A DNA stretch of 64,000 nucleotides from Minisyncoccota bacterium (GTDB lineage Bacteria; Patescibacteriota; Minisyncoccia; Phycocordibacterales; UBA9973): contig JANOFO010000003.1 of the NCBI GenBank assembly GCA_031413715.1, forward strand, positions 75,047-139,046, read 5' to 3'. Below the pieces are notes generated by a model. The model had not been told where the DNA came from and made no database searches. It worked only from the letters and a program-made list of their open reading frames with translations. Below are positions 3,535 through 57,026 of the stretch, piece after piece. The position numbers and the translations under genes are program-made. Numbering within the stretch: position 1 is the stretch's first letter; each line of letters begins with the position of its first letter.

Positions 3535-3702
3535 GCGCTTATTTCTTACAGCCTTCCTCTTAATTTAAAATACAACAAAATAGAATCCGTGTCCATGTAA
3601 GAATACCTAGTGCGAGTCGTCTACCCTTATGGAGGTCGCGTATTCGGGTCATAAGACTTGTAATATGAATTATCAGATGTAACTAGATAAAATAAAACAA
3701 AT

Positions 3703-4740: not shown

Positions 4741-4861
4741 GGACTTTCAGCAAGCACTCTCTTCACTTTGTCATAGTATCTGCTAATAGTTCAAACAACG
4801 TGAGAATCTCAAATGAATTGATATTTGCCACAACATTCTAGACAGGAATGAAATAAAAAAT

Positions 4862-4901
4862 AAATCACCCGCCACTGAAAGGTGGCGGGTGATTTATTTT
4901 T
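4862..4901. terminator. Bidirectional rho-independent terminator between convergent genes
   Basis: Perfect hairpin aaatcacccgccac-tgaaag-gtggcgggtgattt followed by a T-run. Confidence 0.75.
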
Positions 4902-10140: not shown

Positions 10141-10261
10141 GCTGCCGACCAGGGAATTTCGATCCTTACAGGATCAGTATACCTTTTCCATTCACAAGTT
10201 CATATGGAAAAGGTTTTCGAATCCCTGACGCAAGACATATTGATGTCTTGCTATCGGCAGC
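10141..10261. ncRNA. Structured element, copy 1. An outer stem gctgccga/tcggcagc encloses three hairpins. The flank duplicates 15 nt of the tRNA-Gln 3' end.
   Basis: Hairpins gatcc-ttaca-ggatc, accttttccat-N12-atggaaaaggt and caagacat-attg-atgtcttg. About 85% identical to 40766-40884, with compensatory changes in the outer stem and the last hairpin. Confidence 0.5.
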
Positions 10262-10278: not shown

Positions 10279-10284
10279 TTTTGC

Positions 10285-10353
10285 TGCCGACCAGGGATTC
10301 GAACCCCAATACCATCCTCCAGAGGGATGTGTCCTACCATTAGACGAGTCGGC
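10285..10353 (-). tRNA. tRNA-Gln (anticodon CTG)
   Basis: Minus-strand sequence GCCGACTCG...CATCC-CTCTGGA-GGATG...TTCGAAT...GGTCGGCA with a TTCGAAT T-loop. The D- and T-stems are slightly non-canonical by hand fold. Confidence 0.65.
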
Positions 10354-10441
10354 AATAACTCAAACATAGTACCATAAAAATAAAGAAAACCAACCGAATC
10401 AGGGTTTGAAAAGGAGCCATGATTGATGTACAATCAGGTCT

Positions 10442-11170: not shown

Positions 11171-11260
11171 TGATTAGATTATAGTAATTAGTATGTAGCA
11201 ACAATAAAATAAAGTGACACATATTTCGCCATGGCAGAATATGTGTCACTTTATTTTTAT

Positions 11261-15577: not shown

Positions 15578-15643
15578 GCCGAGAGTGGGAATCGGACCCA
15601 CGTTCCTGCTTTACGAAAGCAGTGTCCCGCCTGCCTACGCTTG
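15578..15643 (-). pseudogene. tRNA-like 3' portion (anticodon arm CTGCT-TTCGTAA-AGCAG, T-arm GTGGG-TCCGATT-CCCAC, acceptor 3' strand) with no intact 5' half
   Basis: Hand fold. No acceptor 5' strand or D-arm precedes it. Its acceptor 3' strand TCTCGGC pairs 6/7 with the GCCGATA fragment at 15717-15757. Confidence 0.35.
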
Positions 15644-15716
15644 AGCCCACGAGGAGAATTGCACTCCTAACCTTCGATTTACGATACCGATGCTCTACTA
15701 ATTGAGCTACATGGGC
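15644..15716 (-). tRNA. tRNA-Thr (anticodon CGT)
   Basis: GCCCATG-TA-GCTC..GAGC-A-TCGGT-ATCGTAA-ATCGA-AGGTT-AGGAG-TGCAATT-CTCCT-CGTGGGC-T. Full cloverleaf with U33 and A37. Confidence 0.75.
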
Positions 15717-15757
15717 TTAGGTGATGGCGGGCAGGTCTGCCACTGAACTATATCGGC
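15717..15757 (-). pseudogene. tRNA 5'-half-like fragment resembling the 5' part of tRNA-Thr(GGT)
   Basis: GCCGATATAGTTCAGTGGCAGAC versus GCCGTTATAGCTCAGGCAGTAGAGC in the adjacent tRNA. No matching anticodon arm or T arm follows directly. Confidence 0.35.
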
Positions 15758-15767
15758 ATATTTCGGG

Positions 15768-15840
15768 AGCCGTTAAACAGACTTGCACTGTTGACCTCGT
15801 TCTTACCAAGAACGTGCTCTACTGCCTGAGCTATAACGGC
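15768..15840 (-). tRNA. tRNA-Thr (anticodon GGT)
   Basis: GCCGTTA-TA-GCTC-AGGCAGT-AGAGC-A-CGTTC-TTGGTAA-GAACG-AGGTC-AACAG-TGCAAGT-CTGTT-TAACGGC-T. Confidence 0.8.
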
Positions 15841-15894
15841 GTACATTTCACAGCGCTTATAGTACTATAATTACCCTCTATTTTCAATGAAAGA

Positions 15895-15922
15895 TTGCAA
15901 AATTCTCAATTTTAAGTACAAT
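15895..15922 (+). promoter_or_regulatory. Sigma-70-like promoter for the plus-strand tRNA operon. TTGCAA, a 16-nt spacer, then TACAAT, about 8 nt before tRNA-Met.
   Basis: The motif TACAATAGCA(C/A)AATA recurs in front of tRNA-Asp at 16229. Confidence 0.45.
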
Positions 15923-15930
15923 AGCACAAT

Positions 15931-16001
15931 AGCGGGGTAGAGAAATGGTATCTCGTAAGGCTCATAACCTTAAGACCCTGGTTCGATTCCAGGCCCCGCA
16001 A
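15931..16001 (+). tRNA. tRNA-Met (anticodon CAT), likely the initiator
   Basis: Acceptor AGCGGGG/CCCCGCA with an unpaired 1:72 position and the 3' end CCCCGCAAC, as in bacterial tRNA-fMet. Loop CTCATAA. Confidence 0.7.
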
Positions 16002-16053
16002 CAAGGTCGGCAGGTGACATGCCAGTGAGATATATGTCACTCCTGTCGATAAC

Positions 16054-16124
16054 GCCGGTGTAGTTCAATGGTAGAACGAAGGACTCATAAGCCTTAGAAA
16101 GTGGTCCGATTCCACTCATCGGCA
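16054..16124 (+). tRNA. tRNA-Met (CAT), elongator or the lysidine-modified Ile2 species
   Basis: GCCGGTG-TA-GTTC-AATGGTA-GAAC...CTCATAA...AGTGG-TCCGATT-CCACT-CATCGGC-A. Confidence 0.7.
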
Positions 16125-16152
16125 CAGTCGGGAATAGCCCGAAAAATATACT

Positions 16153-16198
16153 GCAGTCGTAGCTCAACTCAATTTAGAATATAGCGAGCACCCGCCTG
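16153..16198 (+). pseudogene. Partial duplicate of tRNA-Asp (the first 17 nt and a 12-nt anticodon-stem segment, interrupted)
   Basis: gcagtcgtagctcaact ... agcacccgcctg are identical to segments of the tRNA-Asp at 16245-16318. Confidence 0.5.
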
Positions 16199-16206
16199 GG
16201 CGAACG

Positions 16207-16234
16207 TTGTAATCTGATAGAGATTAGTTACAAT
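16207..16234 (+). promoter_or_regulatory. Sigma-70-like promoter for tRNA-Asp (TTGTAA, 16-nt spacer, TACAAT)
   Basis: Same -10 context as the tRNA-Met promoter at 15895-15922. Confidence 0.4.
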
Positions 16235-16244
16235 AGCAAAATAT

Positions 16245-16318
16245 GCAGTCGTAGCTCAACTGGTTAGAGCACCCGCCTGTCACGTGGGAGGTTGAGGGTT
16301 CAAGTCCCTTCGACTGCG
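16245..16318 (+). tRNA. tRNA-Asp (anticodon GTC)
   Basis: GCAGTCG-TA-GCTC-AACTGGTT-AGAGC-A-CCCGC-CTGTCAC-GTGGG-AGGTT-GAGGG-TTCAAGT-CCCTT-CGACTGC-G. Confidence 0.85.
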
Positions 16319-16323
16319 CAAGT

Positions 16324-38453: not shown

Positions 38454-38490
38454 ATAAATTATTTTTTGCATGGGCAATAGCGGGCCGTGT

Positions 38491-38553
38491 GGTACGCAGT
38501 TGGAACTGCTTTGTTGATAAATAAGGGTTAAATACCCTCCAGTATATTTATAG
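38491..38553. repeat. Dispersed repeat module M3. It overlaps the last 7 codons and the stop (..INILEGI*) of the NUDIX gene.
   Basis: About 95% identical to 41996-42058. A related copy lies at 38968-39000. Confidence 0.7.
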
Positions 38554-38974
38554 CCCCTAATATCCACTCACTTCTAAGTTTATCTTTCATCCCTTTTATT
38601 TCTTCAAATGTAAACCATCTGGCATCTAAGAGTTCATCTTCTGGAAACTTTAATTCTCCGCCAGTTATTTTGGCTTCAAAGGCATGCTTTACAGCAGCAG
38701 TCGGTGTTTCGTGAAAAGCATCTATTTCTCTTATTAATTCGACGTCATAACCCGATTCCTCTTTTGCTTCTCGAATCGCTGCTTGCTCAAAGGATTCTCC
38801 TTCATCTACTCTGCCTGCAGGAAAATTCCAAAAACCACGAGCCTTATTTTTCTCTTGAACTAAAAGATATTTGCCATCTTGTTTGATAACGACACCTGCT
38901 ACTACATCTACTTTTATAACTTCTGACATGTTTATTATTATATCAAATTCTTTTGCAGACAGCATGATACCCAA
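38528..38974 (-). CDS. NUDIX hydrolase
   Basis: Nudix box GRVDEGESFEQAAIREAKEESGY. Confidence 0.8.
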   Translation of the reverse strand: MGIMLSAKEFDIIINMSEVIKVDVVAGVVIKQDGKYLLVQEKNKARGFWNFPAGRVDEGESFEQAAIREAKEESGYDVELIREIDAFHETPTAAVKHAFEAKITGGELKFPEDELLDARWFTFEEIKGMKDKLRSEWILGAINILEGI

Positions 38975-39064
38975 TTGGAACCAGCTTGTTGGGAAATAAG
39001 AACTAAAGAGGAAGTTGTTTTAAAAACATCCCTTTCACCTTTCTATACTCATCCATACTTGAGA

Positions 39065-40072
39065 CTAAACTGGGACATGTGGGTCGCGGAGGTATTCTTC
39101 AGCAAGCTGAGTAATTTTCACCGATCCGTTCTCTCCTGTGACATTTGAAAGGAAGACAAAGGTCATTCTTTCAGGAAGAGCGTAATAGATGCCGATTTCA
39201 AAGCCTATGGTACTTCCGCCATGATATGCGACGAACTTCCCATTTTTCTCTTTCAAAAAGATACCGAACCCATAATAAATTTCCGGACCTTCATCAGTCA
39301 GGACATGTTTCGTGAGCATCAGCGCTTTCATTTCCGGAAAGAGTATCTTGTCGCTTTGTATAATTTCGCTCCACAGCGCAAGATCGTGTATAGAAGAATA
39401 AATGCCGCCGTCGCCTATTGTTGTGCTTGTTTGGCGTTGGTCCGTTCGTAGCCACTCGCCGTCTTTTTTTGAATATCCATACCCGCGGTTCGGGATGATG
39501 GTAACGGCTTCCAGGTTTGGTAGCGTAGTTTTCATGCTTAAGGGTTCAAATATATTTTCTTGGAGGAAGTCTCTAAAATCTTGTTTGGAAATTTTCTCCA
39601 CGATGAGTTTCAAAAGGCAAAATCCGCCATTGTTATAAAAATATTTTTCTCCTGGAGTCGAATCCAGCATTTTTTTCCTACTTAGTATCGCAACGACATC
39701 GCTGTCATATAGCTGCTTTCCTTCATATTCAGGAATAGGTTCGACATCATACTCTCCCAGACCGGATGTGTGAGTGAGAAGATGCTGTATAGTGACGTCT
39801 TTGGCATGGATTGGGAATTCAGAAAAGAAATCTCTGAGCTTCGCATCAAGACTCAAAAGACCTTTTTGAACGAGAACAAGGATTGCTACCGCAGTAAAGT
39901 GTTTTGAGACGGATGCTAGACGGAAATTCGTATCAATAGAAATCAGAGTATGTTTGTCAAGATCGGAATATCCAGCTAGGGCAACGTGAACGATTTTACC
40001 GTCTTTTATAATGCCGATCGCGCAACCTGGCGTAATTCCATTGCGATAAGGGGCCAAGAAATTATTTTCCAT
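39065..40072 (-). CDS. Serine hydrolase of the beta-lactamase / PBP4* family
   Basis: SVSK (S-x-x-K) active-site motif in FRLASVSKHFTAVAI. Confidence 0.85.
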   Translation of the reverse strand: MENNFLAPYRNGITPGCAIGIIKDGKIVHVALAGYSDLDKHTLISIDTNFRLASVSKHFTAVAILVLVQKGLLSLDAKLRDFFSEFPIHAKDVTIQHLLTHTSGLGEYDVEPIPEYEGKQLYDSDVVAILSRKKMLDSTPGEKYFYNNGGFCLLKLIVEKISKQDFRDFLQENIFEPLSMKTTLPNLEAVTIIPNRGYGYSKKDGEWLRTDQRQTSTTIGDGGIYSSIHDLALWSEIIQSDKILFPEMKALMLTKHVLTDEGPEIYYGFGIFLKEKNGKFVAYHGGSTIGFEIGIYYALPERMTFVFLSNVTGENGSVKITQLAEEYLRDPHVPV

Positions 40073-40151
40073 TTTTTAATTTTACCTTAAGTCTCGGCAT
40101 TAGTGTACCTGAGTCTGCCGATACTATTTTTTACTGCGGAGGCAGTGTGAA

Positions 40152-40232
40152 TTCAGTACCCACGCTCTCAACCCTTGTAAGGGTATTCTAGTATCTTTGA
40201 GAGTGTTTCGTTGAGGCATGTGAGTCATAGTA
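40152..40232. repeat. Dispersed repeat X (copy 1), located just downstream of a stop codon
   Basis: About 85% identical (inverted) to 56146-56226, including the hairpin acccttgtaagggt. Confidence 0.65.
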
Positions 40233-40236
40233 AAAC

Positions 40237-40740
40237 TTAAATAGAACTATCTTTTAATAACTGTAAGAGCTCTTTATGAGTTTTTTTATTTCCTGCAATA
40301 AAAATTCTATCTCCTTCAGAAAATTCAACATCTCCTTTTCCGTTCGTAAACATACCACCTGCTTCTCTTATTAAAAGACTCCCTGCAAACTCAGGAAATG
40401 AATCTTTGGTTAATGATATAACTCCATCTAATCTTCCACATGCTACAGAGCAATAATTAAAAGAATAAGAATAAAAACTACGTTCCATTTTATATGAAGA
40501 TAATTTTTCAAGTAAATTATCAACTAATTCTCTATCAGGGTAATGCATAACACCTCGAAAAATTATGTCGCTAATGATATTAATGTCAGAAATTTTCTGT
40601 CCTTCTTTGTTTGAGTCTTCTCTAACTACTTTAGTGCCGGCAGAAGTAGCTTGATGTTTCCCTTCGACAAGTTTATTAAAAATTGCTTCTGCTAATTGAC
40701 TTCTGCCATTGTTAGCTTTGCAGACGAATAATATTTTCAT
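40237..40740 (-). CDS. Chimeric ORF: an ArsC/LMW-PTP-like N-terminus (C-x5-R loop) fused to the C-terminal half of an inositol-monophosphatase-like protein
   Basis: N-terminal ILFVCKANNGRSQLAEAI. C-terminal ...CGRLDGVISLT..FAGSLLIREAGGMFTNGKG, an IMPase C-terminal signature. Confidence 0.45.
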   Translation of the reverse strand: MKILFVCKANNGRSQLAEAIFNKLVEGKHQATSAGTKVVREDSNKEGQKISDINIISDIIFRGVMHYPDRELVDNLLEKLSSYKMERSFYSYSFNYCSVACGRLDGVISLTKDSFPEFAGSLLIREAGGMFTNGKGDVEFSEGDRIFIAGNKKTHKELLQLLKDSSI

Positions 40741-40765: not shown

Positions 40766-40884
40766 GCGGAGACGAAGAAAATTTCGATCCTTACAGGATC
40801 AGTATACCTTTCCCATTCATTCTTCATATGGAAAAGGTTTTCGAATCTCTCACGCAAGCAAAAAACGTTGCTTGGTCGTCTCCG
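40766..40884. ncRNA. Structured element, copy 2. It has the same core as 10141-10261 with an outer stem cggagacga/tcgtctccg.
   Basis: Conserved core AATTTCGATCCTTACAGGATCAGTATACCTTT(T/C)CCATTCA...TTCATATGGAAAAGGTTTTCGAATC(C/T)CT(G/C)ACGCAAG. The last hairpin is caagcaa-aaaacg-ttgcttg. Confidence 0.5.
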
Positions 40885-41237
40885 CTTTCGCGGGGCTCAA
40901 GCGGAGAGCGTCGAGTTGGAACTTTTTATAGGCAAGACCTGTAAGGTTATTTTAGCACTTTTTGAGAATCTTAATCGACGTATCTCGTGCGCTTCAAAAA
41001 ATGACATGGTATTGAGTATAAAAGGTGCACTCATCTGTCACTTTTTGGCTATATTTTAGTGCCATATTGTGCTATAATAATGACATGAAAATAGGTGGAA
41101 AAACACAAACCAATAGCCGAACAACCTTCTCTATAAAGGCTCTAAACAAGGATCAAGTCAAGTCTCGATCCTTCGATACCATGCGCACATCCTTTGCCAT
41201 CGAGGGCATTCGTTTTAGCGAGTCGCAATTCGCAGCC

Positions 41238-41846: not shown

Positions 41847-41962
41847 ACACCTATTTTATCACAAAGAGTGAGACAGACTAAGACACAAAAAAGAGGCACT
41901 GAAACAGTTTGAAGAATTAATAGACAAAATCAATCTTAATGAGATCGAGGTTAAGTGAATTA

Positions 41963-42058
41963 CCAAAACTAACAGGTTCTCAATGCAGGCAGTTTGGTAC
42001 GCAGTAGGAACTACTTTGTTGATAAATAAGGGTTAAATACCCTCCAGTATATTTATAG
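41963..42058. repeat. Dispersed repeat modules M2+M3. They supply the last 9 codons and the stop of the truncated msrA.
   Basis: M2 (ccaaaactaacaggttctcaatgc) recurs at 46880-46902. M3 is about 95% identical to 38491-38553. Confidence 0.7.
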
Positions 42059-42251
42059 ACCCATCTAGAAGATTTTTGTATGAGGTTTTCGTTTCATCGT
42101 ATTCTATCTCCACAGCCTCAGCATGGCCTGGATGATTTTCGTATGTAGGAGTTGCATTTGTTCCTCCAGTATATCCAACGAGAGTATTAATAACCCCAAC
42201 CTGAGTCCTTGTGAGGTCTTCAAGTCCCAGAAACATCCACCCGCTGTACAA
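42033..42251 (-). pseudogene. msrA: Truncated peptide methionine sulfoxide reductase MsrA. It lacks the GCFWG catalytic Cys and ends inside the repeat.
   Basis: LVGYTGGTNATPTYENHPGHAEAVEIEYD is MsrA core sequence. The ORF stops after about 70 aa with repeat-encoded ..SINILEGI*. Confidence 0.55.
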
Positions 42252-46828: not shown

Positions 46829-46900
46829 TGTAACATGAAGCTTTGTGGGTCGCACCTCAAGCTAGAGCATGTGGGTCATCAAAACTAACAGATTGTCAAT

Positions 46901-46987
46901 GCGGAGACGGTGGGATTTGAACCCACGAGGGCGATTAAACCCTGCCTCCTTAGCAAGGAGGTACGTTAGACCACTCCGACACGTCTC
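46901..46987 (-). tRNA. tRNA-Ser (anticodon GCT), class II with a long variable arm
   Basis: GGAGACG...CCTCC-TTGCTAA-GGAGG-(long variable arm)-GTGGG-TTCAAAT-CCCAC-CGTCTCC-G. Confidence 0.8.
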
Positions 46988-47061
46988 CGTATAACGCTTT
47001 TATACCTTATCATATTTAGCATTTTTACTCAAAAAGTAATTATGCTAGTATGAGAGAATTA

Positions 47062-47196: not shown

Positions 47197-47282
47197 GGAA
47201 GCGTGGATGAGTGGTTTAAATCAACGGTTTACTAAACCGTCGTCCCTTTAAAGGACCGTGAGTTCGAATCTCACCGCTTCCG
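47197..47282 (+). tRNA. Class II tRNA (long variable arm). The hand fold gives anticodon loop TTACTAA, so the anticodon reads ACT (Ser) with an unusual A34.
   Basis: Acceptor GGAAGCG/CGCTTCC, a 3-bp D-stem, anticodon stem ACGGT/ACCGT, T-arm GTGAG-TTCGAAT-CTCAC. Isotype uncertain. Confidence 0.6.
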
Positions 47283-48890
47283 CATAGTAATACTTTCAGG
47301 CATGAAAGAAACATTCTGCCTTGATACATAAGTACCTTTATCGGTTCGAACTTGAATCAATTCTTGTTCGGCCTTTTTTAGATTCTCGAATATGAATTTG
47401 AACGGCATATGCAAATCTATAACGAGTTTCTGGTCTTTTATGAGGAGGTTCGAACCAAGACATGAAAAAATGGCTCGCTTAGTTTGCAAGTCTCCCTTTT
47501 GGAACCAGATTTGCGCATAGCGTGCGAAATTAAATGTTCTCTCGCTTAGTTCCATCCATTGTTCCTTAGCCTTGCCGTAGGCCTCTAATTCGGTCTCTAG
47601 GGCGTGTTTCTCCTTCACTAGGCCATTCTTGAGCATCTTGTAATCCTCATTGGTTATAAGCTCATTTTGGGTATTCTCTGCGGAAGTGTATTTAAGCAAC
47701 AAGCTATTTAACTGCGTATCAATTTCAGAAAGCCGCTTCTGCTTGTTAAGCAAAACTTGATGGTATGATTGAGCCTCATTTGAGCGTACTTCATGCAAAT
47801 ACTTTATTGCCCATTGCTGAAATCTTTCAGAAATAGTTATTCCGGAAATCAAAGTGTCAATTTGAGCGGTTAAAGATTCTAGTCTGACACTTCTCTCCGC
47901 ACAGTTCTTGTCTATTCTTTTCGTGCAGTGATAAAAAATATAAGTGTGGGTGTTACCATTCTTTTGTCTTTTTGTTTTTATCTCCGCAGTTATCATTGCT
48001 CCGCAACTTCCACACTTCATTAATCCTGTGAATGCGAAGCTGTGTTTCTTAGGTTTCGGTTTTCCTTTCTTACCGAGAATCACTTGAGCGCGTTCATACT
48101 CCTCATCACTTATCATTGCTTCATGATTACCTTTTTTATTTTCTTCGTTATCAGAATATCCTGCATAAAATCTATTAGAGAATAGCCTGTATACCCCTGC
48201 CTTCCCTAAAGACTTACCTTTATATTTTTTTGTCGTGCGAGTTCTTAAATGAAATTCATTATTGGCAATATCGAGAATTTGCATCACCGTATAATTTCCG
48301 GACAAGAGCATTTGCCACATCCGCTTTACAATATCGAAACGCTCAGGGTCATTAACTATGATGTTGTCTCCTTTATCGCGGATAATAGTGTTTAAGTATC
48401 CCAGCGGCGCCCGACCAGGACGCCAGCCCATCTCTATCTTTGTTTTTAATCCTCGTTTTACATTTACACTCAAGTCTCGAATGTATTGATTTGCAATACC
48501 GAATTCCAGATATGAAAGCAAAGAATTGTCTTCTGGATAATAATCTTTCTCTGGAGTTTTAATGTGCTTTATTTCACCTCGTTGAAGCATGCCTATAATT
48601 ATTCCAGCCTCATCTGGGTTTCGAGCTAGCCTATCTAACTTCCAACATAAAATACCACTGGCTTCACCTTTCTTTATTCGACTAATCATTTCATTAAAGA
48701 CCGGACGATTAGCTGGAGTCTTTGCAGATTTCGATTCTCTTAATTTGCTTACAATCTTAAAAGAAAGTCGCGTTCCTAAATCTTCAAGTGCTTTCTCTTG
48801 GGAATCAAGACTGAGAATCTGCCGGTCATCATCTTCTGTGGACTTTCGGCAGTAAATAAAATAATTATTTTGGTTATGTTTTGTGTTCAT
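47271..48890 (-). CDS. Large serine recombinase (resolvase/invertase N-terminal domain, recombinase domain, zinc ribbon, coiled-coil)
   Basis: YCRKSTEDDDRQ...SLDSQ catalytic Ser region, and CGSCGAMI...CTKRIDKNC zinc ribbon. The 3' end overlaps the tRNA 3' end by 12 nt. Confidence 0.85.
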   Translation of the reverse strand: MNTKHNQNNYFIYCRKSTEDDDRQILSLDSQEKALEDLGTRLSFKIVSKLRESKSAKTPANRPVFNEMISRIKKGEASGILCWKLDRLARNPDEAGIIIGMLQRGEIKHIKTPEKDYYPEDNSLLSYLEFGIANQYIRDLSVNVKRGLKTKIEMGWRPGRAPLGYLNTIIRDKGDNIIVNDPERFDIVKRMWQMLLSGNYTVMQILDIANNEFHLRTRTTKKYKGKSLGKAGVYRLFSNRFYAGYSDNEENKKGNHEAMISDEEYERAQVILGKKGKPKPKKHSFAFTGLMKCGSCGAMITAEIKTKRQKNGNTHTYIFYHCTKRIDKNCAERSVRLESLTAQIDTLISGITISERFQQWAIKYLHEVRSNEAQSYHQVLLNKQKRLSEIDTQLNSLLLKYTSAENTQNELITNEDYKMLKNGLVKEKHALETELEAYGKAKEQWMELSERTFNFARYAQIWFQKGDLQTKRAIFSCLGSNLLIKDQKLVIDLHMPFKFIFENLKKAEQELIQVRTDKGTYVSRQNVSFMPESITMRKR

Positions 48891-48891
48891 A

Positions 48892-49101
48892 CTATCTAAG
48901 GATGTAATAAATAATGGTTGGTATCATTAAAAAAATCATTAAGTGATAAAACTCAATCTTCTTTTTTAATTTACCTTCTTTGATAACTAAATGAATTAGT
49001 AATTCGTGAGGAGTTAATTGAAATCTTCTGCAATCTTGCTCAATTTTTTCCTCAGCTCGCATCTCCTCTACTTTCTCTTTTGTGGTTTTTTGATTACCCA
49101 T
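48892..49101 (-). CDS. Small hypothetical protein with a C-terminal TM helix, directly downstream of the recombinase. Its function is unknown; it could be a recombination-directionality factor.
   Basis: ORF only. Start taken at the internal Met MGNQKTTKEK. Confidence 0.3.
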   Translation of the reverse strand: MGNQKTTKEKVEEMRAEEKIEQDCRRFQLTPHELLIHLVIKEGKLKKKIEFYHLMIFLMIPTIIYYILR

Positions 49102-49460
49102 AAAATAATCTAAATTATTTTTAATAGGATAATCGCCAAGAACGCAAAAAGGGACGACTAGAGCCTGCGTCCCACAAGATTGAATTGCACAAGGCAACCA
49201 ATTGTGGAGGATAGTCGCCCCTTTCAGCCCGCAATTGGGCTTCCAAGAAGCAAAATACCCTGTGCACTTATTCAAACTTGTAGGACGCAAGTTAATTATA
49301 CCACCCCGGCAAGATATGTTAAATGGTTAACTGAACTCATAGTAATAACTATAATTAACTAATATAGTTAACAATATAGAATAACTTACTGTATAGGTAA
49401 CTATTAGCTATATAATAGATTTCCTATTAAGTGAAAGAGTTATCTATACCTTTGCCAGGA

Positions 49461-49790
49461 TTAGAATACTTGGTTAGCTTCCTCGTCATTGAGCTTATAA
49501 ATCTTCTTATAATGCTCTTTATTCGCGGCGTCGTAAGTGTCCCATATTTTAGTTTCCAGTTTATCCCAAATTTCTTTGTCGGGAGCAAAAAATATAGGAT
49601 GATACCTCCCGCCTCCGAGATACGCCGGTGGGGTTAGCCAGAGTTTTTGGCCTCTAGGGTTTTCGTATTGAGATTCCTGAATTCGGAATCCCTTCACCAG
49701 GAAATCACCAAAATCCACACCAACAATTGCCTTAACTTTACCTTCGGTGATTTTGACCTTAATTTTTACTTCATCGAAATCAATTTTCAT
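49461..49790 (-). CDS. SpoVG-like small protein (tentative)
   Basis: VKAIVGVDFGDFLVKGFRIQ...GRYHPIFFAPDK resembles the SpoVG fold. Confidence 0.3.
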   Translation of the reverse strand: MKIDFDEVKIKVKITEGKVKAIVGVDFGDFLVKGFRIQESQYENPRGQKLWLTPPAYLGGGRYHPIFFAPDKEIWDKLETKIWDTYDAANKEHYKKIYKLNDEEANQVF

Positions 49791-49960
49791 TTTTCATAAT
49801 GGTTACTCCATTCACTTTTAATAGGCTTGTATGTCGCATCAAAAAGCACCAGCAAGTTTATTGCTTGTTCTGTGGCAATTTCATTAGAGATTTGTTCCCC
49901 AAATTCCTCGCCCCAAATATTCTTAAATTCTAAGAGTGCTTTTTCTGACAACATAAAAGT
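49787..49960 (-). CDS. 57-aa helical protein coupled to the downstream gene by an ATGA overlap
   Basis: Manual translation: MLSEKALLEFKNIWGEEFGEQISNEIATEQAINLLVLFDATYKPIKSEWSNHYEK. It falls below the ORF-track length cutoff. Confidence 0.3.
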   Translation of the reverse strand, partial: TFMLSEKALLEFKNIWGEEFGEQISNEIATEQAINLLVLFDATYKPIKSEWSNHYEK

Positions 49961-50364
49961 CCGCTCTTGACCTTATAGGTTTCCACTGGGATGGCGACCT
50001 ATAAAGTCAGCAACGGACTTCATATATTCCCCCAGTGGAATTACCGCAATCAAAACAAAAACCGCATTTATCTTGCGGTTCTTGCTGAAACTTCCATAGC
50101 AAAACCCACTAAGATAAATGGATTCGGCATTGGAAGTTTCTCTTGCTAATTAAATTAGGGAGAAACAACTGCTCGAGATTATTTAAGAAATATCACTGGC
50201 CTCCTCATGAAGAACCACCAATGACTTGTACCGAAAATAATCTGTTGCGATGTTTTGATTTTTCAAGAACTAATTTAAGTATACCAACCATGTCAATAAA
50301 TTTCATCCACGAAAAATACCCTTTGTTTATTAGGTATTTTACGAGAAAGTATTAGAATGATTAT

Positions 50365-51903
50365 ATGGCAGACTCAAATACCCAAAACCCACAAATTTAC
50401 GAAATGTATAAACCTCTGAGAAACAGAATGCGTGAATTAAATATCATAGAATCCTTATATGTTATTTGGGCTTATTGTAATCACATGCAGTTTACCAACT
50501 CAAAAATACCTTCGGATATTCAAGTTGATAATTCCTTTCTTAACCCTACACATTGGGCTAAGCGTAATATATACGAATGGGAACTTGAGGTCTTAACGCG
50601 AGAAGTAATTTTGCACGGCGAGGATGCTGGAAGCAGAAAAACACTAAAGAGGTGGGACACTCTAGTCAACGCAGTTAATACATTAAAATCTATTGAGAAT
50701 AACATTGGTGGAATTTTTGTAAATAAAAATAATATCCTCTCCGAGTTATTTAGAATCACCCATCGGCAGTTTCCGTGGCAACAACTTAGACCCACGCATG
50801 AGCATATTATCCGTTACTATAAAATTTTTAACTTTCCACCGGTGAGTACTATCGTAGAACAAACTACGGGACTTACCACAAGACAAATATATTTTCTTCA
50901 TATGGCATTATTAGGTGCATTTACTAAAAGCGCAAAATTAAACTTGCCCTTGGAAATTTCTTTACACGGTTTTACTAAAGAACAAGCAAACAGTTTTGCG
51001 AAATCTTTTGCTAAACCAATCGATGATATTAGAGAAATGGTAAAAAATTCTCAACAGTATAATGATAAGTTTGCATATAACAACCAGAGTATTCACGAAT
51101 ATCCCTTAATTACTTTCCAAGAGAACGGCAGAGAAATAGCTATGTGCCCAATGCCAACTTTGCTATTTTGGCGTGCTAGTAGTGGTTTATATTACAAATT
51201 GATAAATCAACCAGGTTTCGATAAAGCATTTGGAGAGTCTTTCGAAAAATATACAGGTGAAGTTTTACAAAAAGCAGTACAATCCAAAAACATTTCTGTA
51301 ATACCCTCTGTAAAATACAACACCGGAAAAGGTAGAGACGAAGAGACCACAGACTGGATATTAAAAGATACAAATGGATTATTGTTTATAGAATGTAAAA
51401 CCAAAAGAGTTCCTTATACGGCAAAATTTGAATTAGACGCAACACTTGTAGCTACCGAATTTGAGAAGATGGCAAAAATTATTGTACAGACCTATAAATC
51501 AATTAAAGATTACCAAGATGGTCATTACCCAAACTTGCCTTTTGAAAAAGGAAAATCCGTCTACCCACTGGTCGTTACTTTAGAGGAGTGGTATGTTTTT
51601 CAAGGAGATTTTATAAAACCGATAAAGGAAGCTGTACTGAGGTTGTTTAACAAGGAATCACTTCCAGAATCATGGCTAGAAGAAATGCCATATCAAATTT
51701 GCTCAATACAAGAATTTGAGGTTGCAATTCAAACTATTAATCATACTGGAATTAAAGAGTTCATGGAGAAAAAAGTTATGGATAAAGAGAAAAAAACTTG
51801 GTCTATTAATACTTTTGCATCGTCAGAATTCCCAGAGATTTCAAAAAACTATAAACCACTTTTTGTTGATGAGTTTGATGCCCTGTTCTCATCTTTTCTC
51901 TAG
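50365..51903 (+). CDS. Uncharacterised 512-aa protein with a PD-(D/E)xK-like nuclease motif in its C-terminal half
   Basis: DWILKDTNGLLFIECKTK (a D...E-x-K arrangement). No other recognisable domain. Confidence 0.4.
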   Translation: MADSNTQNPQIYEMYKPLRNRMRELNIIESLYVIWAYCNHMQFTNSKIPSDIQVDNSFLNPTHWAKRNIYEWELEVLTREVILHGEDAGSRKTLKRWDTLVNAVNTLKSIENNIGGIFVNKNNILSELFRITHRQFPWQQLRPTHEHIIRYYKIFNFPPVSTIVEQTTGLTTRQIYFLHMALLGAFTKSAKLNLPLEISLHGFTKEQANSFAKSFAKPIDDIREMVKNSQQYNDKFAYNNQSIHEYPLITFQENGREIAMCPMPTLLFWRASSGLYYKLINQPGFDKAFGESFEKYTGEVLQKAVQSKNISVIPSVKYNTGKGRDEETTDWILKDTNGLLFIECKTKRVPYTAKFELDATLVATEFEKMAKIIVQTYKSIKDYQDGHYPNLPFEKGKSVYPLVVTLEEWYVFQGDFIKPIKEAVLRLFNKESLPESWLEEMPYQICSIQEFEVAIQTINHTGIKEFMEKKVMDKEKKTWSINTFASSEFPEISKNYKPLFVDEFDALFSSFL

Positions 51904-52120
51904 AATAAATTAACCTCTAACAGAGGTCATCCCTTCCATAGATTATTTTGTTGTTTTAGGAACTGGTACCACCTAAATTTCTTTTTTCGAAACAGAGAGA
52001 GGAAGACTTTATACCTCTTTGAGTTAATAACTTTATATATAAATGTATACTCAAATATAATAACGGATAGAAAGATACCCCCTTCTATATTAGCTAATAA
52101 GTAAGTGCTATAATTCCCTT

Positions 52121-53866
52121 ATGAGCTCACAAACCCTGGTTTGTCAAAACTGCAAGAAAGACTTTGTAATAGAGTCAGAAGATTTTAGTTACTACGAAAG
52201 AATCAAGGTTCCAGCTCCAACTTGGTGCGCTGATTGTCGTTTAGTAAGACGCATGTCTTACAGGAATGAAAGAAATTTGTATAAAAGAAAATGCCAAGCT
52301 CAAGGGCACGGAGAAGAAATGATTTCAACTTTCTCTCCTGATAAACCAGATACAATCTATTGTCATACTGCTTGGAATGGAGATAGTTGGGATGCAATGA
52401 ATTACGGACGAGAATATGACTTTTCAAAATCATTTTTTGAACAAATGAGGGAGCTTTGGAAAAGTGTTCCTGATGTGGGGCTATTTAATATAAACCCAGT
52501 AAATAGTGATTATTGTAGCATCACTCAAGACAACAAAAATTGCTATCTAGTTATTGGAGGAGATTTCAACGAAGACTCTTTATATTCTTCCTTCATATTC
52601 CACTCCAAAGAATGCATGGATTGTCATTTAGGCTCAAAAATTGAGAAAAATTACGAAACCACAGACTGCATTTCTTGTTTTAATTTGAAATATAGTCGCT
52701 ACTGTGAAACTTGCTATGATAGCGCTTTCCTCTTCAACTGTCGCAATTGTCATGATTGTTTCGGGTGCGTAAATTTAGTAAACAAAGAATATTGTATTTT
52801 CAACAAACAATACACCAAAGAAGAGTACAAAGAAAAAATGAAGGCGATAGATTTTGGCTCTTTCCAGGATATTCAAAAAACAAAAAAAGAATTTGAGGAG
52901 TTTAGTTTGAAGTTTCCAAGGCGCTTCGCAAAAATAGTAAAATCAGTTGATGTCTCAGGAGATTTTATAGAAAACTCTAAAAAATGTACTTACTGCTTTT
53001 CTGTGTTTGGTGGAGCCGAAGAGAGTAAAAATTTATGGCTCATTTATTCTCAAGTAAAGGATTCTTATGACATAGACCACTCTGGGCTCAACTCCATGGA
53101 ATGTTATGAATCTTCAAGCGTATACCCAGGAAACCAAGTAATGTTTTCTAGGTTTATTTGGGATAGCCATCATATTGAATATTCGTATAACTGTAATAAC
53201 TCTTCATACTTATTTGGCTGTGTAGGGGTAAAGAATAAAAAATATTGCATATTTAATAAACAATACGAGCCAGAGGAATGGAAAGTTATGCGAGAAAAAA
53301 TTATTAGCCACATGAAAGAAATGCCATATAAAGATAGAGGGGGTAGAGTATATTCTTATGGAGAGTTTTTTCCTATTGAACTTTCTCCTTTCGCATACAA
53401 CGAAACAGTAGCTCAGGAGTTAAAACCGCTTGATAAAAAAGAAATAGAAGGTTCTGGATATAACTACGCCGAAAATACTGATAGAAATTACAAAATCGAA
53501 AGAGAATACAAAGATTTGCCTGACAATATAGACCAGGTAGATAAAAACATCTTAAACAAAACAATTAGTTGTGCGCATGGTGGAAATTGTAAGGATGGTT
53601 GTACTCAGGCATTCAAAATTACCGAACCGGAACTTTCTTTTTACAATAATTACAGAATACCCCTCCCTAGAATGTGTCCAAACTGTAGGTACGCGGACAG
53701 GTTAAAACAGAAAAATCCTCTCCATCTCTGGCGCAGGACTTGTATGTGCGACAAAAAGCATTCTAATCACACAGGAAATTGCGATATTGAATTTGAAACT
53801 TCTTATTCCCCTGACCGGCCGGAGATAGTGTATTGTGAAAAATGCTATCAGCAAGAAGTTTACTAG
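52121..53866 (+). CDS. Uncharacterised 581-aa cysteine-rich protein with N- and C-terminal zinc-ribbon-like CxxC pairs and an internal duplication
   Basis: CQNCKK...CADCR at the N-terminus and CPNCR...CEKCYQQ at the C-terminus. The segment ..FGCV..K.YCIFNKQY..EE.K is repeated. Many CxxC/CxC clusters. Confidence 0.5.
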   Translation: MSSQTLVCQNCKKDFVIESEDFSYYERIKVPAPTWCADCRLVRRMSYRNERNLYKRKCQAQGHGEEMISTFSPDKPDTIYCHTAWNGDSWDAMNYGREYDFSKSFFEQMRELWKSVPDVGLFNINPVNSDYCSITQDNKNCYLVIGGDFNEDSLYSSFIFHSKECMDCHLGSKIEKNYETTDCISCFNLKYSRYCETCYDSAFLFNCRNCHDCFGCVNLVNKEYCIFNKQYTKEEYKEKMKAIDFGSFQDIQKTKKEFEEFSLKFPRRFAKIVKSVDVSGDFIENSKKCTYCFSVFGGAEESKNLWLIYSQVKDSYDIDHSGLNSMECYESSSVYPGNQVMFSRFIWDSHHIEYSYNCNNSSYLFGCVGVKNKKYCIFNKQYEPEEWKVMREKIISHMKEMPYKDRGGRVYSYGEFFPIELSPFAYNETVAQELKPLDKKEIEGSGYNYAENTDRNYKIEREYKDLPDNIDQVDKNILNKTISCAHGGNCKDGCTQAFKITEPELSFYNNYRIPLPRMCPNCRYADRLKQKNPLHLWRRTCMCDKKHSNHTGNCDIEFETSYSPDRPEIVYCEKCYQQEVY

Positions 53867-54023
53867 CTCAGAACAGCTTCTGTTTCAGATAGTTTGGGTA
53901 TGAAAAAGTATGTATTTGGATTGCTATAATAGGTTCTAATGTCGTATACTAACCTCCGCAGACAATTTATATCGGAGCGACCTGAGTACCAAAAATAGCA
54001 TATTTGAGTTAAAATAGCTGTAT

Positions 54024-55016
54024 ATGGAAAAACAAAATTTAGGTTTAAAAAACGATACTGTAGATATGGAGAAACCTGAAGTTCAGAATAATTTGGGCTC
54101 TTTATTGAAAGAAAAAGGCATTGAAAATGTGCCTAGGATTAAAACCAACTTCTTCTTTAATAAGCATGCAACCACAGAGGATGGAGAGGCCATCAGTGAA
54201 CGATTAAAAAATACCGACATCTTACTTCAAGAAAATGCAGGTTGGGATCCTGCTCGCCTCGATATTTTCAATAATGTATCAAACGGCATCCTAACGCCCG
54301 AACAGGCAATGGACATGGAGAAACAGAGAGGAAAACCATTCTTCCATGAAGATTTTTATAACGCACTATTAAAAGGTTTGTATAAATCAGAAAAGAAAGT
54401 AATGCTAGTTGATGTTCCAGACGATAATGTAGTCTTCAAAAACCTCATGGGTCTGTTTTCAGGTAACGGCACTTATAATAATCTCATAGACAAGTCCTTG
54501 CCTTATGAAGAAATGTTACGGAGGGTCGGTAATGTATCAAAATTTGAATCTGACATGCAAAAGGCTCGCGAAGATTATATTTTGGAAAATCTTCCAGAAG
54601 CTCTGGTCAAAATATTGAAGCAAAATCCTGAGTTCCAGAAAAAAGAAGATTTGAAGATACTTTTCTCGATGGGAGGTTTTCACACTCGGCTGTATCACGA
54701 GATGAAAAAATCAGGAAATGATGTAAATCGAGAATTTTCAAGTATGCCGTATAAGTTTGATCCTCGGATGGCCGCTGAACGCAATATCCACTTCAGGGGT
54801 ATGGAGAAGTCAAAATATTTATTGCCTAAGATTACCCTCTATCTTCTTCTAAAAAAAGAACTGCCGAATTTAAATATATCAAATAATATTATGTCTGCTT
54901 TTTCTGATGAAAAAATTAAGAATCTCTATGAAAAATACCAAGCAGTTTCTTCCAAAGAGTTCAAAGAATACCTCGAATCGATATTATCAGTATCCGACCC
55001 ATATGTCCCAGTTTAG
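54024..55016 (+). CDS. Hypothetical 330-aa protein. Its last 7 codons and stop lie inside dispersed repeat module M1.
   Basis: Long ORF with no recognisable motif. The C-terminus ...SDPYVPV* is encoded by gacccatatgtcccagtttag, which recurs at the end of the 39065-40072 gene. Confidence 0.5.
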   Translation: MEKQNLGLKNDTVDMEKPEVQNNLGSLLKEKGIENVPRIKTNFFFNKHATTEDGEAISERLKNTDILLQENAGWDPARLDIFNNVSNGILTPEQAMDMEKQRGKPFFHEDFYNALLKGLYKSEKKVMLVDVPDDNVVFKNLMGLFSGNGTYNNLIDKSLPYEEMLRRVGNVSKFESDMQKAREDYILENLPEALVKILKQNPEFQKKEDLKILFSMGGFHTRLYHEMKKSGNDVNREFSSMPYKFDPRMAAERNIHFRGMEKSKYLLPKITLYLLLKKELPNLNISNNIMSAFSDEKIKNLYEKYQAVSSKEFKEYLESILSVSDPYVPV

Positions 55017-55158
55017 CTCTCAAAAATCTCCCGAACCAGTCTTATAGGACCTCGTGAATTCGGTACTGAACCCACAATGCCCACATTCATCACGACGTAG
55101 CTTTAGCGAAGTCGGATTCGCCAAATCTATATCACGATTTTAAGCTAAAATACAATAT

Positions 55159-56139
55159 ATGAGCGAAAAACCTCGACACAAACGTAGATTCAAAAATCCT
55201 GAGAAATGTTTTCAGACTAAAGGATTCCATTTTGCATCGGTTCGATGGATCCTCACTCGAATATTTAAAAATTCTTACAAATTGGGAATAGACTTGCCAG
55301 AGACACATGTGGTTTCTAAGAAAGAAGCCCTTTCTTTAAAAGAAAAATATCATAATGTTCCATCTATAACTTGGCTTGGTCATGCTTCATTTCTCTTAAA
55401 AATTGGAGATGTACAAATATTAACTGACCCGATTTTATTTGGTACCCCTGCAACACCATTACTAAAAAGTTTAAAAAGGTTACCGAGCCCACTTCAAGCA
55501 ATGGAATTAACTGGGGTAAACATACTACTCCTTTCCCATGAGCATGCTGATCATGTACATCATCCCTCTTTGGCAAGTCTCTTAAAAAAAGAAGATATCC
55601 AACCTATTGTTTCACTTGGCATAGGCAAAAAGATACTTAAGCATAAATTCAAAGAATCTATTGAGCTTGATTGGTTTGAAATATACAAAGTAGGTAATAC
55701 GATAACGATTACCGCTGTACCCGCAGTTCATTATTCTGATTTCACTAATAGCACATTGTGGTCTGGATTTATTATTTCTTTTACAGATCAAGAGGGAAAG
55801 ATAAAGAAAATATATTTTGGCGGAGATACTGGCTATGGTCCATTCATAACAAGAGATATAGCTCCATACGGTCCATTTGATATTGCCCTTATTGGAGTGG
55901 GCGCCTTCGAACTTCCCTATCAATCTCGCGCGCCAGTTGTGCATACGAACCCAGAACAAGCTGTTAATATTGCCAAAGAAATACAAGCTCAAAAAATTAT
56001 TGGGATGCATTGGGGAACAATGAGAATGGCAGATGAAGTTCCACACACATTATTCCCTCGTATGATTCAGCATGCAAATGAGATCGGATATCAAGGAGAA
56101 ATAAACATGCTTCGTATCGGGGAAACCATTGCAATGTAA
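55159..56139 (+). CDS. MBL-fold metallo-hydrolase
   Basis: LLLSHEHADHVH (HxHxDH) and ITWLGHASFLLK. Confidence 0.85.
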   Translation: MSEKPRHKRRFKNPEKCFQTKGFHFASVRWILTRIFKNSYKLGIDLPETHVVSKKEALSLKEKYHNVPSITWLGHASFLLKIGDVQILTDPILFGTPATPLLKSLKRLPSPLQAMELTGVNILLLSHEHADHVHHPSLASLLKKEDIQPIVSLGIGKKILKHKFKESIELDWFEIYKVGNTITITAVPAVHYSDFTNSTLWSGFIISFTDQEGKIKKIYFGGDTGYGPFITRDIAPYGPFDIALIGVGAFELPYQSRAPVVHTNPEQAVNIAKEIQAQKIIGMHWGTMRMADEVPHTLFPRMIQHANEIGYQGEINMLRIGETIAM

Positions 56140-56145
56140 TTTATC

Positions 56146-56226
56146 TACTGTGACTCACATACCTCAATAACTACTCAAGAAAAGTGATAAAATACCCTTA
56201 CAAGGGTCGAGAGCGTGGGTACTGAA
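56146..56226. repeat. Dispersed repeat X (copy 2), inverted relative to 40152-40232
   Basis: It begins 7 nt after the stop of the MBL gene, as copy 1 does after the 40237 gene. Confidence 0.65.
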
Positions 56227-56279
56227 CTAACATGGCCACACAACAAAAATAATTTAGGAAAATCTGATATACTATTCTT

Positions 56280-57026
56280 ATGGATGACCTTGAGAAATTA
56301 AAAGTTGAGAATGAGGAACTAAAAAAGGTAAACGCGGTCAGATCGGATTTGATTTCTATTTCTGCCCATCAGCTCCGCACTTCACTCTCGGCGCTCAAAT
56401 GGATTCTTAGGATGTTTGCAGATAAAGACCTCGGCAAGATTACCCAAGAGCAGGAAGGATTTATCGAGAAAGCACTAGAAAGCAATGAACGCATGATAGT
56501 GCTCGTCAACGATCTGCTGACGCTCAATCATTCTGATGATGCGAGTATTCCATTTAACTTTAAACAGGTAAATATCATAGGACTGCTTGAAGAGACATTG
56601 TTTGAATTCTATGGCGAGACTCACAAGAAAAATATCGAGCTTATATTCATAAAACCCACTACCGATATTCCCCTTGTTCGCTGTGATAGTGAAATGATTC
56701 GAGTGGTCATGCAAAACCTGATCGAGAACTCCATAAAATATAGCGATCAGAACGACAAAGTTTTCGTATCACTCAAATACAAGGCGGAAACAAATACAAT
56801 CGACATATCAATTCACGACACCGGTATCGGAATCAAGCAGGAAGACCAAGACAAGATTTTTAATAAATTCTTCCGCACTAGAAATGCAATCGAGAAGGAT
56901 AATATCGGCTCAGGCTTAGGATTGTATACCACAAAGAACATAATTCTGCGTCATAAAGGGAAAATCTGGTTCGAAAGTGCTCCCGATTCAGGAACGACCT
57001 TTTATGTTACATTACCTATAAATTAG
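56280..57026 (+). CDS. Soluble sensor histidine kinase (HisKA + HATPase_c, no TM or sensor domain)
   Basis: H-box ISAHQLRTSLSALKW, N/G boxes DTGIGIKQEDQDKIFNKFFR and GSGLGLYTTK. Confidence 0.85.
   Translation: MDDLEKLKVENEELKKVNAVRSDLISISAHQLRTSLSALKWILRMFADKDLGKITQEQEGFIEKALESNERMIVLVNDLLTLNHSDDASIPFNFKQVNIIGLLEETLFEFYGETHKKNIELIFIKPTTDIPLVRCDSEMIRVVMQNLIENSIKYSDQNDKVFVSLKYKAETNTIDISIHDTGIGIKQEDQDKIFNKFFRTRNAIEKDNIGSGLGLYTTKNIILRHKGKIWFESAPDSGTTFYVTLPIN

Follow-up and report, generated by a model that had tools for sequence, protein, structure and literature searches.

A dispersed intergenic module at gene junctions lends unrelated Patescibacteria proteins a shared C-terminus

The window analysed here, a 64,000-nt stretch of a Minisyncoccota contig (JANOFO010000003.1), contains a gene for a 330-aa protein followed by genes for an MBL-fold hydrolase and a histidine kinase and, on the opposite strand, a gene for a serine hydrolase (Table 1). 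The initial annotation had noted that the last 21 nt of the 330-aa gene and of the serine hydrolase gene are nearly identical, and had proposed that two unrelated proteins share a repeat-encoded C-terminus and stop codon; both observations were confirmed. The 21-mer GACCCAYATGTCCCAGTTTAG has exactly two copies in the window, at 54996-55016(+) and 39065-39085(-), and the identity between them reaches one base further upstream, giving the 22-nt form CGACCCA[Y]ATGTCCCAGTTTAG at 54995-55016(+) and 39065-39086(-) with 21 of 22 positions identical (inverted pair I16). No chance matches to the 21-mer are expected (0 in 100 dinucleotide shuffles at up to 3 mismatches). Both copies of the 22-mer make up the last 7 codons with the TAG of their ORFs, and beyond the stop codon ~7 nt more match if a 1-nt indel is allowed (TAG[C]TCTCAA). 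The ORF at 39065-40072(-) belongs to the beta-lactamase family (PF00144) by Pfam, while Pfam and PHROG searches with the ORF at 54024-55016(+) gave no match, so the two proteins are regarded as unrelated. The end of the 330-aa gene, extension included, is found with 0 mismatches in Logan contigs L001 and L002, which are independent read-set assemblies from different runs, and the shared ending is therefore not an assembly error of the record. Homologues of both proteins place the window in Patescibacteria (CPR), near Yonath-/Kaiserbacteria, and speak against Leptospira, which its low GC content had at first brought to mind.

The 21-mer is not free-standing. It is the 5′ edge, which we call box 1, of a longer non-coding intergenic module, and similarity among copies runs ~75 nt further beyond the stop codon. 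An nhmmer profile was built from six copies and used to search the window and related loci. R55 occupies the entire spacer that separates the MBL-fold gene from the 330-aa gene and consists of the core, a weak hairpin and a TAAAAT 7 nt before the ATG at 55159. R40 sits between the serine hydrolase gene and a 167-aa ORF (40237-40740), and past the truncated R39 there is unrelated spacer as far as a NUDIX gene. The 167-aa ORF is itself chimeric, joining an N-terminal phosphotyrosine-phosphatase fragment to a C-terminal inositol-monophosphatase fragment.

Several other identities for the repeats were rejected. Inverted pair I1 (40141-40190 / 56188-56237) is R40 and R56 on opposite strands, and I1 and the 22-mer pair are separate co-oriented module copies; they do not mark the inverted ends of a 16-kb transposon or sites of inversion, a reading also contradicted by L016, a related locus described below, which shows the R55 side to be ancestral. 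A remnant of a paralogous hydrolase was dismissed, with nothing hydrolase-like near 45-47 kb and similarity that begins abruptly at box 1, as were the template and variable repeats of a diversity-generating retroelement, there being no sign of a reverse transcriptase and, by inspection, no restriction of the differences to adenines. Two box-1-like sequences, TGACCCACATGCTCTAG and GCGACCCACAAAGC, lie 3′ of tRNA-Ser(GCT) and are followed by a terminator hairpin; judging by their letters the pair is possibly a mini-copy of the module. Duplication of the tRNA-Ser was rejected, a second copy of the tRNA 3′ end being absent from the window.

Table 1. Modules, module fragments and associated genes in the window.
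Feature	Position	Strand	Basis or remark
Beta-lactamase-family serine hydrolase gene	39065..40072	-	PF00144
Module R39, truncated	39061..39094	-	profile positions 4-37 only
Box 1 of R39	39065..39086	-	last 7 codons (DPHVPV plus TAG) of serine hydrolase
Module R40, full, type I	40070..40234	-	nhmmer E=1.2e-37; TAAAAT 6 nt before ATG
Module fragment upstream of 167-aa ORF	40938..40984	-	profile positions 19-65
Two box-1-like sequences, TGACCCACATGCTCTAG and GCGACCCACAAAGC	46840..46880	-	by eye; no profile match
Module fragment, 3′ (promoter) part only, upstream of 330-aa gene	53956..54019	+	profile positions 98-165; weak, E=2.5e-4 in 2.5-kb search
330-aa protein gene, no assigned family	54024..55016	+	ORF list; Pfam/PHROG negative
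Module R55, full, type II	54987..55161	+	nhmmer whole-module profile E=1.3e-32; alignment
Nine-codon extension SVSDPYVPV plus TAG	54990..55016	+	protein and DNA alignments
Box 1 of R55	54995..55016	+	last 7 codons (DPYVPV plus TAG) of 330-aa protein
MBL-fold hydrolase gene between R55 and R56	55159..56139	+	domain search
Module R56, type I	56145..56294	+	nhmmer E=1.1e-25; MBL-fold gene on one side, histidine-kinase gene on other

The profile found copies in five other Patescibacteria assemblies with E values of 1e-13 to 1e-40: two in L003 (GCA_013334825), four in L005 (the same MAG as L008), two in L016, and one each in L019 and L025 (Kaiserbacteria GCA_001783435). Those in L005 form a run of four consecutive gene-module units. 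A diverged copy of the 22-mer lies in L003 in the spacer after the 330-aa orthologue, and further copies exactly end a Pol-beta nucleotidyltransferase gene, also in L003, and the serine hydrolase orthologue in L005. The module upstream of the 330-aa gene that keeps its 3′ part only is also found in the orthologous loci L003, L016 and L019. Profile searches found no module in L014, which has a 330-aa orthologue, or in L006, which has a hydrolase homologue. Scanning the genome collection with the type I core pattern returned the L005 genome and chance matches only, and a mixed pattern one unrelated metagenome contig only; these patterns are too strict, L025 differing at one fixed base. Scans of viral contig collections for module patterns found none. 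The family is thus described from ~14 distinct copies, and its profile could serve as a tool for finding variable accessory-gene regions in uncultured CPR bacteria.

Modules are intergenic and 105-175 nt long, with a conserved, non-coding core of ~95 nt, then a variable hairpin and, in full copies, a promoter-like TAnAAT box. In the alignments the core runs from box 1 (consensus CGACyCACATnnCTC...) through a variable stretch and CCCTTAynnGGG to box 2 (GGTACTGAAcyCACAnTGCCCGC), which is the best-conserved block and a direct repeat of box 1 ~72 nt downstream. Full copies carry TTTAAGcTAnAAT, with the next ATG 6-8 nt later. Type I copies (R40, R56, L5_76, L5_86, L5_95 and L16a) have an internal TGcTAnAAT box within the core, and type II copies (R55, R39, L3a, L3b, L5_107, L16b, L19 and L25) read ...GTTTAG after box 1. 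The type II box 1 has one open reading frame, D-P/S-H-x-x-V, closed by TAG (TAA in L19), and its translations are DPYVPV*, DPHVPV*, DPHTSD*, ELHVSV*, DSHSSV*, DPHTSV*, DPHASV* and DPHTST* (asterisk, stop). A hidden small ORF was ruled out by stops in all six frames across the copies. Identity between the cores of R55 and L025 is 65%; for the adjacent coding DNA of the hydrolase it is 62%. Identity of 65-70% across genera exceeds what a plain spacer needs, and from these alignments a specific function, such as protein binding to the direct boxes, seems likely. In the tiny genomes of Patescibacteria spacers are very short; one of ~150 nt that is retained, multiplied and conserved between genera is not expected there and probably has a role.

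Every copy points in the same direction as the genes on both sides, and the module start ranges from 21 nt before to ~60 nt after the upstream stop codon. These positions bear on a further proposal of the initial annotation, that the repeat inserts into gene 3′ ends or is tolerated there. A dispersed repeat is indeed present, but nothing points to a 21-nt inserting element; the 21-mer is the edge of an intergenic module, the usual start of which is at a stop codon or shortly after it, and the overlap of the module with the 330-aa gene comes from the loss of a stop codon. A miniature transposable element that targets gene 3′ ends, or is tolerated at them, would account for a dispersed non-coding sequence that follows unrelated genes and overlaps several stop codons. 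We nevertheless consider it very improbable: the alignments contain no terminal inverted repeats within modules, the conserved boxes are direct, every copy runs in the direction of its flanking genes where a MITE would insert in either orientation, no transposase is linked, and copies fill the spacer up to the next ATG. In addition, the difference seen at the repeat-free L014 is not a clean insertion but takes in all of the sequence downstream.

The gene and box 1 overlap at the 330-aa gene because the native stop was lost. The nine orthologues that come closest to the 330-aa protein (63-79% identity), repeat-free L014 included, all end ...FESIL*, and the nine extra residues SVSDPYVPV are found only on the window protein among those compared. 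Where the orthologous genes read ATATTA-TAG-A(C/T)..., the window reads ATATTA-TCA-GTA-TCC-GAC...; the ancestral TAG is TCA in the window, and translation continues for nine codons to the TAG of the module. The change may have been a 1-nt insertion, going by the spacing in L003 and L016, or substitutions, going by the spacing in L019. In these three loci 4-5 nt separate the native TAG from the box that follows it (4 nt in L003), and in L003 and L016 the box DNA after the stop is out of frame and non-coding.

Altogether three gene families stop at box 1 in its open frame. The serine hydrolase does so in the window, L005 and L025, with the tails RDPHVPV*, SDSHSSV* and PDPHTST*, respectively; Pol-beta nucleotidyltransferase stops in the module in L003 and, at an earlier TAG, in L005 (SELHVSV* and LDSAA*); and the 330-aa protein stops in box 1 only in the window genome. 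Repeat-free hydrolase homologues end differently, for example ...RRSNI* in P0023/L006. Since the orthologues of the 330-aa protein end ESIL* and the hydrolase ends vary, the tail does not go back to an ancestral protein motif, and the comparison with orthologues that the initial annotation had proposed comes out on the side of a DNA repeat rather than conserved protein sequence for both genes. That DPxVPV is a conserved functional C-terminal peptide, with the DNA identity secondary, is effectively refuted. Several hydrolase homologues do end D-P/S-H-x-x-V/T, but the motif is missing from all nine 330-aa orthologues, the similarity continues ~75 nt past the stop, residues at the variable positions are not conserved, and the same box DNA stands out of frame after the stop in L003 and L016. 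We infer that the shared tail arose as a by-product and has no role in itself. For annotation this would mean that proteins of this clade ending D-P/S-H-x-x-V carry repeat-encoded tails and not functional motifs.

At their far end, full modules show the promoter layout that is usual in this genome. A Shine-Dalgarno-like motif precedes none of 61 ORFs, and a TAnAAT ends 4-10 nt before the ATG in 25 of them, a combination that fits leaderless mRNAs. In R55, R40, L3a, L5_76, L5_86 and L5_95 the TAnAAT stands 6-8 nt before the ATG, the genome-wide mode for this spacing; a two-hexamer sigma-70 scan of 54900-56400 gave nothing above shuffles. Hairpins 3′ of the core in L3b, L5_107, L16b and L25 have predicted energies of -33 to -46 kcal/mol and are intrinsic-terminator-like, and those of R55 and R56 are weak. 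The layout is that expected of a terminator plus promoter, with a predicted hairpin after the upstream gene and a putative -10 box at typical spacing before the ATG.

The core itself has no conserved fold. RNAalifold on the aligned copies gave 0 consensus pairs on either strand, two hand-picked helices had 75% paired cells against 72% in shuffles with no covariation, and fold z-scores are ~0 for most copies. Rfam 15 returned no match at the gathering score, at E<=1 for L005 or at E<=10 for the window module regions. Taken together these results led us to reject a structured RNA, and a likeness to 5S rRNA noticed by eye was dropped after permissive Rfam scans gave no 5S match. It is possible, if doubtful, that the core works at the RNA level within the upstream gene's 3′ untranslated region, either as a C-rich unstructured landing site for a termination factor, ribonuclease or RNA-binding protein, or as a 3′-derived small RNA. 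The core is always on the sense strand between a stop codon and a terminator-like hairpin, is unstructured and conserved across genera, and has a sense-strand C/G of ~1.5 overall and up to 2.2 in type II (window ~1.0). The absence of covariation and of Rfam matches up to E<=10 speaks against this, and type I is not C-rich.

The two direct boxes (GACyCACA... and GAACyCACA.TGCC, ~72 bp apart) could instead bind one protein that co-regulates the downstream accessory genes, which would make the modules shared regulatory regions. The boxes are the best-conserved blocks, and the 8-mer box is found 11 times where 2.6 occurrences are expected. Additionally, box 1 and box 2 have the same base at the C/T position (T in type I, C in type II) in 9 of 10 copies that allow comparison by eye, and type I copies have the extra TGcTAnAAT box inside the core. 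We find this unlikely, as the agreement between boxes is explicable by a single split into two subfamilies, and there is no linked candidate regulator, the response regulator adjoining the kinase having a receiver domain only. Since the similarity extends over 100-170 nt, beyond what an operator site needs, common descent of the modules is required in any case.

Comparison of individual copies revealed that they are mosaic. The 5′ third of L5_95 is 70% identical to L5_86, its neighbour in the same genome, and 52% to R40, whereas its 3′ third is 86% identical to R40, which lies upstream of the window hydrolase gene, and 62% to L5_86; over the middle 50 nt R40, L5_76 and L5_95 share 90-96% identity. 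For Pol-beta the gene-linked similarity begins only ~50 nt before the ATG, and breakpoints fall at profile positions of ~37, ~45-58, ~97-108 and ~130, differing between hydrolase-linked and Pol-beta-linked copies. Mosaic copies with variable breakpoints point to recombination between copies, and the variability fits homologous or illegitimate recombination better than a single crossover site. The box pair R39-R55, at 21/22, is the most similar of the non-orthologous pairs; other type II pairs score 14-20 and the orthologous pair L3a-L16b scores 21. This one 22-nt comparison suggests that the window copies may have been homogenised within the genome by short-tract gene conversion.

Gene neighbourhoods around the modules vary. 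Between the window and L003, L005 or L006 only the gene and its module flanks are common, and the surrounding genes differ. L016 has the order 330-aa gene, module, HisKA kinase, receiver and RecG, and the window has the same order plus one MBL-fold gene and one module; the MBL-fold gene is absent from L016. With the same downstream neighbours kept in L016, the 330-aa gene is a resident and not demonstrably the cargo of a recombinase, and the 1 kb of L016 contig upstream of its orthologue contains no recombinase, so the "cargo gene" label it had been given initially is doubtful. Of the MBL-fold orthologues, the two nearest in sequence (77% and 65% identity) are in other contexts with no nearby modules. 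Our prediction that they would keep module flanks failed, and the modules therefore belong to the spacers of one lineage rather than to each gene.

A large serine recombinase, a phage-type integrase at 47271-48890, is the sole recombinase in the window region (Pfam, ORFs at 37-60 kb). The modules were rejected as its attachment site, given that they occur at five other loci that have no serine recombinase and that the 330-aa gene keeps its ancestral neighbours.

An integron-like cassette system, in which site-specific recombination between directly repeated modules moves the genes and the tails mark the crossover side of a cassette, would explain much of this arrangement. Co-oriented gene-module arrays are present, with four units in L005, and both the hydrolase (window, L005, L025) and the 330-aa gene (four loci) have differing neighbours with module sequence on both sides. 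One gene with one module is present in the window and absent from L016 between the 330-aa gene and the kinase, R39 is cut at profile position ~37, and the hydrolase-linked part of R40 begins at about 45-58. We still consider such a system quite unlikely. Neither an IntI-type tyrosine recombinase nor any other integrase-family gene was found among called genes in the 10-kb flanks in L003, L005, L016 and L025, and Pfam found no tyrosine integrase among the window ORFs at 37-60 kb. There is no attC-like inverted-repeat hairpin (0 consensus pairs on either strand, z-scores near 0, conserved boxes direct and not inverted), and several breakpoint positions occur in place of one. Integron cassettes are co-oriented ORFs, mostly promoterless and each with one site after it, but each unit here has its own promoter-like TAnAAT 6-8 nt before the ATG, and MBL-fold orthologues exist without modules.

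Taking the module family with its anatomy and constant orientation, the lost stop codon and the mosaic copies as the observed ground, the explanation that we favour, at a probability of roughly 55%, is a lineage-specific portable gene junction that has been spread and reshuffled by recombination between copies, with the shared C-termini as by-products. In this scheme the module would combine the 3′ untranslated region or terminator of the upstream gene with the leaderless-type promoter of the downstream gene, and copies would spread and reshuffle through recombination with one another at variable points, with short-tract gene conversion keeping R55 and R39 at 21/22 identity. A gene that becomes joined to a type II box 1 in the open frame, or that loses its own stop in that frame, would then end at the TAG of the box. 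The hydrolase, Pol-beta and 330-aa tails all come about because the type II box 1 is open in one frame and closed by TAG. The conservation of the core and the presence of two direct boxes are not explained by a portable junction alone. An unlikely further reading is that the modules are the junctions of a gene-cassette exchange system new to CPR, with a recombinase acting on the direct boxes or the CCCTTAynnGGG palindrome, or with the modules as portable homology anchors for naturally competent cells swapping accessory genes between species. If that were true, cassette-exchange modules would amount to a functional analogue of the integron without IntI or attC. The modules are in any event a testable lead on accessory-gene shuffling in CPR bacteria.

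We found no description of the module family in Rfam or in literature searches on CPR intergenic repeats, integrons and leaderless expression. Its closest known kinds are dispersed intergenic repeats of the ERIC, BOX and Correia type, and it approaches integron arrays by layout only. ERIC/IRU and the pneumococcal BOX are dispersed intergenic repeats of ~100-150 nt, imperfect palindromes that form stable stem-loops and occur in either orientation. The module shares with them its size class, its non-coding nature, a position near gene ends in transcribed spacers, modular subtypes, restriction to one lineage and a debatable function, but it has no conserved fold, is always co-oriented and includes the putative promoter of the next gene. 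Correia elements of Neisseria are ~100-155 nt long, with 26-bp terminal inverted repeats and a TA target duplication. They are similar in length, bring promoter or terminator signals to their neighbours and can alter gene ends; neither terminal inverted repeats nor a TA duplication was seen in the module. The REP/BIME sequences of enterobacteria are ~35-nt palindromes linked to RAYT transposases, and like the module they are extragenic, lying directly 3′ of stop codons inside 3′ untranslated regions. Unlike these 20-40 nt palindromes, the module has an unstructured core of ~95 nt with no conserved stem, and no RAYT gene is nearby.

With integron arrays the modules have in common co-oriented unrelated accessory genes, a repeated site at or in ORF 3′ ends and variable gene content, and they differ in lacking IntI and attC hairpin symmetry, in their variable breakpoints and in having a putative promoter per gene. 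In the minimal mobile elements of Neisseria, DNA taken up by the cell recombines homologously at conserved flanks, and accessory genes are exchanged in this way. The accessory genes described here also lie between conserved possible recombination anchors, and the junction copies are mosaic; there, however, the anchors are conserved flanking genes, whereas here they would be short portable intergenic modules.

The three gene families that stop in box 1, together with a second repeat pair nearby, make a concrete case of dispersed intergenic repeats rewriting protein C-termini. That second pair is an 83-nt repeat in the same region, which is much rearranged in general; through this repeat the NUDIX protein (...GAINILEGI*) has its tail in common with a truncated MsrA-like ORF (...GSINILEGI*). 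Independent assemblies break within these repeats and inside R55 at 55104-55127.

Two unrelated ORFs, one a NUDIX gene and the other a truncated MsrA-like ORF (42033-42251), share the tail ...INILEGI* because an 83-nt direct repeat lies at both gene ends. One copy of this repeat spans the final ~30 nt of the NUDIX gene along with the spacer downstream, and the other makes up the end of the MsrA-like ORF. The 3′ part of the repeat (GTACCACACGGCCCGC) is similar to the box 2 end of the intergenic module, box 2 being the block that directly repeats box 1 at the module's 5′ edge. Positions of the features discussed here are collected in the table.

Window positions and properties of repeats, palindromes, tRNA genes and ORFs
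Feature	Position	Strand	Details
83-nt direct repeat	38475-38557 and 41981-42062	both minus	92% identical
32-nt direct repeat	41955-41986 and 46871-46902		81% identical
80-nt direct repeat	10155-10234 and 40780-40858		91-96% identical
167-aa ORF	40237-40740	-
tRNA-Ser, unusual anticodon ACT	47197-47283	+	ARAGORN; Rfam tRNA 56.8 bits
Recombinase and ORFs after it	47271-53866		recombinase 539 aa, large serine, phrog_95 integrase
Six-tRNA-gene cluster	15578-16319	both	three Thr, two Met, one Asp
Near-perfect palindrome	11206-11257		26-nt arms, no gap
Near-perfect palindrome	4856-4901		20-nt arms, 6-nt gap

The 32-nt repeat, in which the flank of the tRNA-Ser(GCT) 3′ end is found again beside the 83-nt repeat near 42 kb, adds to the patchwork make-up of the 38-47 kb region. 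The 167-aa ORF looks like a chimera produced by rearrangement, in which the first ~46 residues of a low-molecular-weight phosphotyrosine phosphatase are joined to the last ~120 of an inositol monophosphatase. The second copy of the 80-nt repeat is found upstream of this ORF, the first copy lies directly downstream of tRNA-Gln (10283-10354, minus strand), and one Logan contig (L023) terminates within the repeat.

The tRNA-Ser(ACT) gene, divergent relative to tRNA-Ser(GCT) at 46901-46988, overlaps the recombinase gene stop at 47271, and another Logan contig (L001) starts within it, at 47255. It may mark the left-hand boundary of the element carrying the serine recombinase. The four ORFs after the recombinase (132, 109, 512 and 581 aa) had no match to any family, and at the right side of this region the DNA adjoins a module truncated at position ~98 of the module profile (53956).

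Across the whole window, none of the 61 ORFs had a Shine-Dalgarno-like motif, and in 25 of 61 the ATG was preceded by a TAnAAT box whose end fell 4-10 nt away (mode 6-8). This suggests that transcripts in this organism are as a rule leaderless.

In the relative GCA_040384045, the hydrolase orthologue (positions 9727-10747 of contig L005) was called as two overlapping ORFs of 112 and 248 aa, a split that probably reflects either a frameshift in a pseudogene or an error in sequencing. The Rfam LOOT RNA (RF03000) matches the same contig strongly at 3450-3568 (+; 85.9 bits, E=2.6e-15); the array of four gene-module units opens ~3.3 kb downstream of this match, with its first gene at 6901.

Elsewhere in the window, the two palindromes are probably bidirectional terminators. 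At Thr(CGT) (15578-15716) in the tRNA cluster, ARAGORN gives two overlapping genes, just one of them confirmed by Rfam.
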